A stretch of DNA of 64,000 bases, taken from assembly GCF_009931435.1 (NCBI RefSeq), contig NZ_CP043414.1; one strand, 5' to 3'. The translations under genes and the position numbers were made by a program. This document shows, piece after piece, positions 6,193 through 28,594 of the stretch. The stretch is from Escherichia coli (lineage in GTDB: Bacteria; Pseudomonadota; Gammaproteobacteria; Enterobacterales; Enterobacteriaceae). Position 1 is the stretch's first letter. Each line of letters starts with the position of its first letter. The notes under the pieces were generated by a model, which ran no database searches, was not told the DNA's origin, and was given only the letters and a program-made list of their open reading frames with translations.

Positions 6193-6582
6193 ATGAAATA
6201 TAATACGATGAATAACAACGAAATTATTTTATCACTGTGCGCTCGCATTAAAGAAACGCGTATCTCATTATCATTGACCCAACAGCAGTTAGCCGAGCGT
6301 GCATTGGTGGGCATAGCAACGGTCAAGCGGATTGAAAAGGGGGGAAGTTTAAATCTTGATACTCTCATTTCTCTTCTGCGCGCGCTGAATAAATTGCAAA
6401 ATCTCGATGCCATATTGTTCGAAGCAGAAATGCGTAATTTCAACGAAAATAGTTCCAGCGGCGAAGGGGCAGGGCGACTACAGGTACGCCAGCAACTGAC
6501 AGATTTAAACCAGAAGTCTCCAGCCCCGCACGCAGATGACCATAATTTTAGTACGGCGCTGGAAAATACCCTCTGCTGGTGA
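6193..6582 (+). CDS. XRE-family helix-turn-helix transcriptional regulator
   Basis: 130-aa ORF with HTH block LSLTQQQLAERALVGIATVKRIEKG; aagga RBS 8 nt upstream of ATG at 6193; last gene of the island. Confidence 0.7.
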   Translation: MKYNTMNNNEIILSLCARIKETRISLSLTQQQLAERALVGIATVKRIEKGGSLNLDTLISLLRALNKLQNLDAILFEAEMRNFNENSSSGEGAGRLQVRQQLTDLNQKSPAPHADDHNFSTALENTLCW

Positions 6583-7452
<870 letters not shown>

Positions 7453-26808: not shown

Positions 26809-26837
26809 GTACTTCTTACCCAATCAGGTGCACGGAC

Positions 26838-26880
26838 GGTCCCCTCGCCCCTTTGGGGAGAGGGTTAGGGTGAGGGGAAA
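26838..26880. repeat. GC-rich compound palindrome (cccctcgcccctttggggagagggttagggtgagggg), terminator-like
   Basis: Nested inverted repeats seen directly after the monooxygenase stop. Confidence 0.4.
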
Positions 26881-26967: not shown

Positions 26968-27915
26968 ATGCGTGTGTTACTGGCGCCGATGGAGGGTGTA
27001 CTCGACTCTCTGGTGCGTGAATTGCTGACCGAAGTTAACGACTACGATCTGTGCATCACCGAGTTTGTCCGCGTGGTGGATCAACTGCTGCCGGTAAAAG
27101 TTTTTCATCGCATTTGCCCGGAGCTACAAAACGCCAGCCGAACGCCATCCGGTACGCTGGTGCGCGTGCAATTGCTGGGTCAGTTCCCACAATGGCTGGC
27201 AGAGAACGCCGCCCGTGCGGTGGAGTTAGGTTCCTGGGGCGTGGATCTTAATTGCGGCTGTCCGTCGAAAACGGTTAACGGTAGCGGCGGCGGGGCGACA
27301 CTACTCAAAGATCCTGAACTCATCTACCAGGGTGCAAAAGCGATGCGTGAAGCTGTACCGGCGCATTTGCCCGTCAGTGTGAAAGTGCGCCTGGGCTGGG
27401 ACAGCGGTGAGAAGAAATTTGAAATCGCCGATGCGGTTCAACAGGCTGGCGCTACGGAGTTGGTGGTGCATGGGCGGACAAAAGAGCAGGGTTACCGCGC
27501 GGAGCATATTGACTGGCAGGCGATTGGCGAGATTCGCCAACGGCTGAATATTCCGGTGATTGCCAACGGTGAAATCTGGGACTGGCAGAGCGCGCAACAG
27601 TGTATGGCGATAAGCGGCTGTGACGCGGTGATGATTGGTCGCGGAGCGCTCAATATTCCCAATCTGAGCCGAGTGGTAAAATATAACGAACCGCGAATGC
27701 CGTGGCCGGAGGTGGTTGCTTTGCTACAAAAATATACCCGTCTGGAAAAGCAGGGCGATACCGGGTTATATCACGTTGCGCGGATTAAACAGTGGTTGAG
27801 TTATTTGCGTAAAGAATACGATGAAGCAACAGAATTATTTCAGCATGTTCGGGTGTTGAATAATTCCCCTGATATTGCAAGGGCTATTCAGGCAATTGAT
27901 ATCGAGAAACTCTAA
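26968..27915 (+). CDS. dusC: tRNA-dihydrouridine(16) synthase DusC
   Basis: N-terminus [33 protein letters not shown]; start trimmed from the track ORF. Confidence 0.9.
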
Positions 27916-27960
27916 GAAACCATAGTGATGTTTTTTGACAATGTCTTAGCTCTTTATCAA

Positions 27961-28200
27961 TAGGCCGCACGGTTGTTTGGTGGCGTCAAAATCGCCGAGG
28001 CGTTCCCTGAAGGCCGGGGCAGCCCACATGGATGTGGGCTGAGGGCGCGTTTTACAGGGATGTTACCTCGCGCCCGACCCGGTAGCCGTAAGGGATAAGC
28101 CGAGGGCACCGCGCAGCGGCGATTTTGTTCGCCAGAGCCCGGGGGTGCAGGGGGCGGCGGCGACTGGTCGCCCCTTGCGCGCTCCTTGCGCTAGTGATTA
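27961..28200. other. GC-rich non-coding element with long-range inverted repeats and a perfect internal palindrome
   Basis: tggcgtcaaaatcgccg (27983-27999) pairs with cggcgattttgttcgcca (28118-28135); palindrome gcccacatggatgtgggc at 28022-28039; no ORF of 60 aa or more. Confidence 0.3.
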
Positions 28201-28287
28201 TATGAAGCAATGCACATGACAGGAGCGCAACAGGATGAGAGACTGAAATATTCTCGTTATTTTCGGATCTGATGACGTTAATTAATT

Positions 28288-28371
28288 TTAAAATATCATC
28301 TTAAATACGCCAGTCACCACCAGTAGTCCAATCAGGAAAATAATCAATACAGCCCAGAGTATAATTTTCAT
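28288..28371 (-). CDS. yohP: Small membrane protein YohP (27 aa, MKIILWAVLIIFLIGLLVVTGVFKMIF)
   Basis: Hand-translated minus-strand ORF identical to my recollection of YohP; single transmembrane helix. Confidence 0.7.
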   Translation of the reverse strand: MKIILWAVLIIFLIGLLVVTGVFKMIF

Positions 28372-28594
28372 TGGCGTTCCTTTATTTGTGAGTGTCGAAT
28401 AAGTATAGGAAAAAACGAAGCCCTTTGCCGTTACTCATAAGTGATTAAGATAAATCGGAGAATATCATTCACTTACTGTATATTTTTCTGAATATGTCGT
28501 TTTATTGCCACTGATGTATTGCCACGCGAAACTAAAAAATATATTGCATCACACGGTAATCTCCGCGCACCTTTTCTTACCTGACTATTCCTCC

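Follow-up and report, generated by a model that had tools for sequence, protein, structure and literature searches.

The stretch of Escherichia coli DNA analysed here (the window, 64,000 nucleotides in full) carries, in this order, dusC on the plus strand (26968-27915), yohP encoding a small membrane protein on the minus strand (28288-28371) and mdtQ on the plus strand. The mdtQ reading frame is intact here (28505/28598-30031); in K-12 it is annotated as a frameshifted pseudogene. The two genes dusC and yohP provide the context of the element described in this work and lie outside it.

The dusC-yohP intergenic region is occupied by a GC-rich block, with a GC fraction (100-nt windows) of 0.62-0.72 across 27950-28199 versus 0.31-0.42 in the flanks. 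As recognized in an earlier note on this DNA, made from the sequence alone, the block contains no open reading frame of 60 or more amino acids, the longest ones (50 and 52 amino acids) being located on the minus strand, and it represents a distinct non-coding structured element, outside the REP and ERIC families. The extent proposed there, 27961-28200, does hold the block but falls short of its true span of approximately 27959-28247, the terminal stem (28180-28186 / 28221-28227) lying partly beyond it.

Identity and published function of the element

On the basis of its sequence the block has been securely identified as TRIP1c, alias RRS-dusC (the dusC "replication risk sequence"). The earlier note had called it unexplained, naming a BLAST match to a known repeat as the finding that would speak against this, and the BLAST check has revealed precisely such a dispersed repeat. 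TRIP1 was found by Rudd in 1999, and a survey covering 6725 genomes comes from Li et al. 2024 (PMC10888264), who define TRIP1c as a sequence of 273 bp that starts 43 bp after the stop codon of dusC (yohI) and lies between dusC and yohP/mdtQ. TRIP1 was rediscovered as the 222-bp Replication Risk Sequence (RRS) in the work of Pham, Cox, Goodman and co-workers (Pham et al. 2023, PMC10287960; Pham et al. 2024, PMC10592627; Kusi-Appauh et al. 2026, preprint, bioRxiv 10.64898/2026.06.16.732529). The identity of the window copy is secure because it is 97.9% identical over 281 nt to the dusC-yohP intergenic region of E. coli K-12 MG1655 (megablast), because the dusC stop codon ends at 27915 and the element begins at approximately 27959, matching the 43-bp offset of TRIP1c, and because the published RRS motif GGGGGTGCAGGGGGCGGCGG is matched exactly on the plus strand at 28141-28160.

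Mapped onto the window, the published TRIP1c definition corresponds to 27959-28231. Homology between copies begins at approximately 27966/27977 and ends at 28231-28247, the farther limit being reached by the reversed copy of strain CFT073. The K-12 identity, the TRIP1c description and these homology limits together place the whole element at 27959-28247, with its G-rich strand on the plus strand of the window. A second copy was sought elsewhere in the 64-kb window and none was found. When 27940-28220 was used as a megablast query, TRIP1 was present in 5425 of 5426 complete E. coli genomes, at a median of 3 places in each, and the further E. coli copies in the aqpZ-lysO and alx-sstT intergenic regions correspond to published TRIP1 loci. 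The element in the window is therefore real and unusual, but previously described and not new.

A GC-rich repeat, ggtcccctcgcccctttggggagagggttagggtgagggg, is found at 26836-26880, between the upstream gene and dusC; in strains without TRIP1d (L123, L124), the space between alx and sstT is filled by sequence of this type, which we take to be Box C-like. An 88-kb E. coli "plasmid", pMTY11352_3 (L003, 3805-4240), carries the chromosomal segment macA-ybjX-ybjD-aqpZ-lysO-hcp-hcr-poxB with a partial, reversed TRIP1a.

The demonstrated function of TRIP1/RRS is exerted at the DNA level, during replication, and has been shown for the K-12 copies. RecA and SSB ssGap-seq peaks have been observed on the lagging strand beside both K-12 copies and are lost when the copy is deleted (Pham et al. 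2023, 2024; Kusi-Appauh et al. 2026), and relocated copies produce new peaks (PMC10592627). In vitro, the G-rich strand blocks Pol I, Pol II and Pol IV at the G-run site and reduces synthesis by Pol III in M13 (PMC10592627). In single-molecule experiments a gap was formed at nearly every encounter when the G strand served as the lagging-strand template, and at about two thirds of encounters with the complement (Pham et al. 2023, 2024; Kusi-Appauh et al. 2026). The K-12 copies (lysO and dusC, located ~650 kb on each side of dif) could not both be deleted without a compensating 200-kb amplification, at least one of them is conditionally essential, and deletion or inversion of both alters supercoiling in the region between them and across the genome (Pham et al. 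2023, 2024; Kusi-Appauh et al. 2026).

Conserved fold of the G-rich strand

Relatives of the element were collected by scanning a single genome of each species for a sequence pattern, which yielded 113 stretches; once redundancy was removed, 98 copies representing 11 genera (Escherichia, Citrobacter, Klebsiella, Raoultella, Enterobacter, Leclercia, Silvania, Atlantibacter, Pseudescherichia, Pseudocitrobacter and Kluyvera) were aligned, and the common structure was derived with RNAalifold and completed by hand. The bases GGCCGGG, CATGGATG and AGGG were fixed by the scan pattern, hence their invariance carries no information. Three pattern matches in Desulfovibrio and Hydrogenophaga MAGs were regarded as accidental, no similarity being present beyond the pattern. 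TRIP1 copies of 83-92% identity were also seen on contigs labelled Desulfacinum, "Proteobacteria bacterium", Bacillus and Sporobacter (L019, L034, L099, L122), which probably reflects contamination or mis-binning.

That the block is highly structured, as the earlier note had proposed, is borne out by folding: the plus strand has a minimum free energy of -131.1 kcal/mol (z = -4.43), equalled by none of 200 dinucleotide shuffles, and the minus strand folds more weakly (-106.1 kcal/mol, z = -2.97). A covariation check, which the same note had put forward, found the pairing segments to be conserved. Standard pairs fill 96.4% of the alignment cells over 49 pairs, as compared with 84.5% in column shuffles and 38-43% with slid partners, and both sides have changed in 31 of the 49 pairs (98 copies, 11 genera). 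Such strong compensatory covariation across 11 genera contradicts the suggestion that the block is a decayed remnant of foreign DNA. A tentative pair (columns 51/144) contained 64 A·C cells and was dropped. G·U combinations were found in 100 cells versus 12 for A·C, which identifies the G-rich strand as the folding strand. This result agrees with the published strand asymmetry, in which the G strand is the stronger block, and single-stranded DNA and RNA both fit it.

In the predicted fold, helix P1 joins CAAAATCG (27987-27994) to CGATTTTG (28120-28127), with 99.1% of its cells paired and five of its eight pairs changed on both sides. The long-range inverted repeat of the earlier note exists at this place, a few bases away from where it had been put, in the form of two 16-nt segments, 88% complementary, at 27987-28002 / 28112-28127. 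A single 16-bp P1 helix was considered and rejected, since the alignment favours an 8-bp P1 together with a covarying P2 and a small hairpin. P2 is formed by CCGAGGCGTTC (27995-28005) and GATAAGCCGAGG (28094-28105) and covaries strongly (e.g. pair 35/164 is GC in 47 copies, AU in 31 and CG in 16); a near-invariant unpaired GG(G/A)ATAAG stands just before its 3′ arm. The small hairpin, P5 (CCGC GCA GCGG, 28109-28119), is paired in 99.5% of cells, with three of four pairs changed on both sides. P3, in which CGGG at 28015-28018 pairs with 28078-28081, closes the junction that bears hairpins 1 and 2; it is 99.5% paired and nearly invariant, being partly fixed by the search pattern.

Hairpin 1 (28020-28041) includes the sequence gcccacatggatgtgggc (28022-28039), previously taken for a perfect 18-bp palindrome, which in reality belongs to a hairpin with perfect 10-nt arms (28020-28029 / 28032-28041) around GG. 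In the family structure its arms are 28020-28028 / 28033-28041, with seven of nine pairs changed on both sides, and the loop motif CATGGATG presents AUGGAU at 28028-28033. Hairpin 2 (28043-28075) has the apical loop AGGGAT (28056-28061), the family consensus being CA-N-GGA-Y-G; none of the 98 copies deviates from its bases C, A, GGA and G, even though these lie outside the scan pattern, and the apical pair of the hairpin is AU in 65 copies and GC in 32. A ~75-nt insertion with a third ANGGAY-loop hairpin (GCCCCAGGGATGGGGC) was observed in L021, L059, L078 and L080 (alignment columns 173-247), as well as in L033, and hints that the family is assembled in modular fashion from hairpins of this kind. 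At the 3′ end the terminal stem P7 (28180-28186, CGCTCCT / 28221-28227, AGGAGCG) encloses a variable region (28180-28227 overall); 97.4% of its cells are paired and six of its seven pairs have changed on both sides, e.g. from CGCTCC/GGAGCG to CGTTCAC/GTGAACG.

According to the published model, the fold is a G-quadruplex at GGGGGTGCAGGGGGCGGCGG (PMC10592627). The quadruplex motif overlaps the 5′ arm of P6, the G-rich hairpin at 28145-28180 (GTGCAGGGGGCGGC, loop GGCGACTG, GTCGCCCCTTGCGC), whose 14-bp stem has a predicted energy of -28.7 kcal/mol. A hairpin of 11-14 bp occupies the quadruplex site in every complete copy (62 distinct sequences), with compensatory replacements such as GCAGGGGGCGGC/GCCGCCCCCTGC by GTAAAGGGCGT/ACGCCCTTTAC or GCCAGGGTGG/CCACCCTGGC. 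A canonical quadruplex (four runs of at least three G, loops of 1-7 nt) is present in three of the 98 copies and absent from the window copy; by G4Hunter the window copy peaks at 1.8, and 45 of the 98 copies attain at least 1.5. A structure of two tetrads could still arise from the two G5 runs of the window, and published work has recorded polymerase stops at this site (PMC10592627). Since the hairpin is retained in all complete copies through compensatory changes and the quadruplex potential is patchy, we infer that conservation favours the hairpin and the whole fold over the quadruplex. The covariation of the multi-helix G-strand fold across the family is a new result and supports the predicted "double-Y" fold.

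Orientation and arrangement of the copies

In the K-12 chromosome the motif is located on the plus strand at 915191 and on the minus strand at 2229193. With oriC taken to lie near 3.93 Mb and dif near 1.59 Mb, both motifs are on lagging-strand templates, in agreement with the RRS authors. In the window the motif lies on the plus strand, which is the sense strand of dusC, and the GC skew is +0.0315, positive in seven of eight blocks; taken with the K-12 gene arrangement, this points to the plus strand as the lagging-strand template. Among E. coli genomes TRIP1c has been reported in the forward orientation in 2952 and in the reverse one in 2789 (Li et al. 2024, PMC10888264). The dusC copy of CFT073 is reversed and 88% identical to the window copy, with flanks of 96-97% identity. 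Over 91 family loci the flanking GC skew, a noisy proxy, was positive in 39, where the G strand would be the lagging-strand template, and negative in 52. The neighbouring long open reading frames were convergent in 31 cases, tandem and co-oriented with the element in 16, tandem and antisense in 14 and divergent in one; the K-12 lysO copy is antisense to aqpZ/lysO. As judged by skew and neighbouring reading frames, the orientation is not fixed relative to replication or transcription across the family, and the element shuns promoter regions with no preference for the direction of transcription.

Homology between the forward and reverse alleles ends ~4 nt before the dusC stop codon (window 27899-27915 versus L009 of CFT073, 800-818), so that DusC ends in ...IEKL* in the window and in ...IDKLR* in CFT073, with a stop codon that comes from the variable cassette. 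The two alleles were also considered as halves of an ancestral inverted dimer, but a pair of copies occurs on only one E. coli-like contig (L034), which seems to be chimeric and is uninformative.

Where two copies adjoin, 23 pairs are arranged head-to-head (5′-to-5′), most of them 100-145 nt apart, none tail-to-tail and four in tandem. The head-to-head pairs (e.g. at L006, L010, L029, L045, L046, L067, L072, L074, L075, L081, L082, L108 and L109) are stereotyped, ~580-715 bp long and bounded by GTTCCGTTCAC...GTGAACGGAAC, and their inverted symmetry extends ~30 nt past these boundaries. Speculatively, an inverted pair would present one of its G strands on the lagging-strand template regardless of the direction in which the fork travels. 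Enterobacter sp. ENT03 has seven near-identical composites of ~650 bp, in each of which a forward type A copy comes after a reversed type B copy (L036-L042; in L042 at 6560-7340), three of them within ~20 kb of one contig. In Klebsiella, two tandem copies share one intergenic region (L005, 2028-2784), and copies are often flanked by REP-like GCCGGGTGGCGGCTGCGCCTTACCCGGCCTAC, including the K. pneumoniae loci L116-L121.

Interpretation and relation to known systems

The reading we prefer, with a probability of about 0.85, is that the window holds the dusC copy of the enterobacterial TRIP1/RRS element, that it acts as a replication-gap fold, and that the whole fold is under selection. As published for the K-12 copies, the G-rich strand folds on the lagging-strand template and stops DNA polymerases, leaving an Okazaki fragment unfinished and a gap of up to ~2 kb that becomes loaded with SSB and RecA. 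Selection would act on more than the quadruplex motif, keeping the entire multi-helix fold (P1-P3, the two ANGGAY hairpins, the small and the G-rich hairpins and the terminal stem). The window copy is oriented as in K-12, its G strand being the putative lagging-strand template.

An additional clue comes from TwoAYGGAY (RF01731), the only Rfam family responding to TRIP1. Its score is 30.2 bits (E 0.014) in the window and 29.9, 30.4, 32.7, 37.8 and 42.5 bits in other copies, the best one from Citrobacter, all below the gathering cut-off of 43; matches to AgvB, flavivirus and miRNA families at permissive thresholds were discarded as noise. A JUMPstart RNA (RF01707, 57.2 bits) found ~2.3 kb from a Citrobacter freundii copy (L092, 5083-5120, minus strand) is probably unrelated. 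TwoAYGGAY, for which Clostridia and gut metagenomes have been reported as sources, is classified as an RNA without known function and comprises two AYGGAY loops with a closing stem that is often very long (Weinberg et al. 2010, PMC2864571). In TRIP1, loop 1 (AUGGAU) fits AYGGAY; loop 2 of the window (AGGGAU) has a purine at position 2, and a number of copies from Silvania, Leclercia and Citrobacter have AUGGAU as loop 2. The closing stem around both hairpins, P1, P2 and P3, amounts to 19 pairs with covariation, and the 12-mer CACAUGGAUGUG is common to TRIP1 and to the Psychromonas ingrahamii seed sequences, which are themselves multi-copy. The resemblance is specific, membership in the family not being established, and no mention of it was found in the TRIP1/RRS papers (PMC10888264; PMC10287960; PMC10592627; bioRxiv 10.64898/2026.06.16.732529). 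We regard it as a tentative proposal, with the odds rather against it, that TRIP1/RRS is an enterobacterial branch of TwoAYGGAY, i.e. a G-strand fold recognized by a factor, which blocks polymerases through a hairpin and not a G-quadruplex and spreads as an inverted-pair repeat; the putative factor may recognize the conserved ANGGAY, GGAUAAG and GGCGR loops.

The same data may be read as the mark of a primarily selfish intergenic repeat, similar to REP/BIME or MITE, with the gaps as a by-product or exaptation and the one-strand fold serving its own spread or retention, e.g. through a candidate enzyme that recognizes the folded single strand. The copies are numerous (a median of 3 for E. coli genomes, 13 on one K. 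pneumoniae chromosome and at least 7 for Enterobacter ENT03), near-identical within a single genome, located at loci that vary between genera and nearly restricted to the 3′ ends of genes (31 convergent, 30 tandem and 1 divergent); to this may be added the stereotyped inverted pairs, the REP sequences adjoining Klebsiella copies and the occurrence of both orientations at one locus, where the alleles are far less alike than their flanks. Copy number (at least 13 in Klebsiella) and genus-specific loci fit a spreading repeat better than a fixed Ter-flanking pair. However, neither target-site duplication nor a clean empty site was seen at alx-sstT and dusC-yohP, where the footprint of insertion is unreadable because the alleles differ by cassette replacement starting at the upstream stop codon; no transposase, reverse transcriptase or other associated gene was seen near the copies, phage genomes were without copies (distant BLAST), and plasmid matches were chromosomal fragments or mislabelled chromosomes. 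The published cellular phenotype, with two copies that are not cleanly deletable, also argues against a purely selfish repeat (Pham et al. 2023, 2024; Kusi-Appauh et al. 2026). As the primary explanation selfishness seems to us possible and not probable; it is compatible with the replication-gap reading, and a selfish component alongside the published function is plausible.

An action at the RNA level, proposed in the earlier note as a structured sRNA or a long 3′ UTR element, is not established for either form. The G-rich strand would be transcribed into a structured RNA of the TwoAYGGAY class, and the ANGGAY loops, with GGAUAAG and GGCGR as further binding sites, would bind a dimeric RNA-binding protein, one candidate being CsrA, whose SELEX consensus, RUACARGGAUGU, they resemble. 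In its favour are the sole Rfam match, with the same topology and the shared CACAUGGAUGUG, the loop of hairpin 2, invariant without selection by the scan, the position of the element 43 nt past dusC on the same strand with no intervening terminator, and the covariation and excess of G·U over A·C, which suit RNA equally with ssDNA. Nevertheless, all scores stay under the Rfam threshold, the promoter scan gave nothing within the element or beside it, and the number of terminator-like sites on both strands of 27700-28500 was 0. The near equality of co-oriented (16) and antisense (14) tandem contexts weakens the RNA and 3′ UTR readings together with this lack of promoter or terminator; read-through into the K-12 lysO copy would yield the C-rich strand, as that copy is antisense to its neighbours. 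A CsrA sponge was suggested by GGA in both apical loops, but CLIP-seq tables for CsrA mark dusC and ybjE as unbound, and it has been kept as a low-probability branch. All experimental phenotypes, including in vitro replication with purified proteins, are at the DNA level, and we consider an RNA function improbable. More improbable still, to the point of being barely credible, is punctuation of transcripts or mRNA by a terminator, insulator or REP-like 3′-end stabilizer: the very stable hairpins and the almost exclusive location at gene 3′ ends would suit it, but no hairpin is followed by a U-tract, no terminator-like site was found in the scanned region, the gene-relative orientation is random, and a multi-junction fold of ~270 nt with conserved loops is far too elaborate.

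The element has been named since 1999 and its replication phenotype has been known since 2023, therefore the window copy is not significant as a discovery. The published RRS mechanism centres on the G-quadruplex and on a conserved Ter-flanking position and orientation (Pham et al. 2023, 2024; Kusi-Appauh et al. 2026). The comparative data suggest that the hairpin-rich fold, not the G-runs, is conserved, which could be relevant for RRS work, as could the many relatives without good quadruplex potential and the variable orientation within the family. What this analysis adds, and what may interest specialists, is the selection on the fold, the patchy retention of the quadruplex, the likeness to TwoAYGGAY and the inverted pairing of copies.

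Among known systems, the TRIP1/RRS copy of K-12 has the same locus, motif and orientation as the window copy and differs from it in nothing substantive. REP units are simple palindromes of ~35-40 nt present in hundreds of copies. REP and BIME elements share with TRIP1 the GC-rich, hairpin-forming, multi-copy character, the location at gene 3′ ends, mosaic or inverted clusters and proposed roles in topology, but TRIP1 is ~270 nt long with at least 7 helices and 1-13 copies, and the sequences showed no similarity. The RRS papers mention the gyrase-binding BIME-2 elements (Pham et al. 2023, 2024; Kusi-Appauh et al. 2026). TwoAYGGAY resembles the left half of TRIP1 in its adjacent A-N-GGA-Y hairpins within a long closing stem, and is likewise multi-copy and intergenic; TRIP1 adds the 3′ half (G-rich hairpin and terminal stem), is GC-rich in composition, and has an effect demonstrated on DNA. 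The pilE G4 of Neisseria gonorrhoeae, which is short and canonical, has its role in antigenic variation and requires an sRNA transcribed in cis. It is like TRIP1/RRS in the programmed formation of gaps through a folded G-rich strand, but its sequence, size and genomic role are unrelated. The RRS authors state that apart from it no other bacterial sequence has been reported to trigger programmed gaps through a folded G-rich strand (Pham et al. 2023, 2024; Kusi-Appauh et al. 2026). If the TwoAYGGAY relationship were true, a candidate RNA orphaned since 2010 would be linked to a DNA element with a replication phenotype, and if TwoAYGGAY elements elsewhere triggered gaps as well, programmed gap formation would be far wider than the two known cases.
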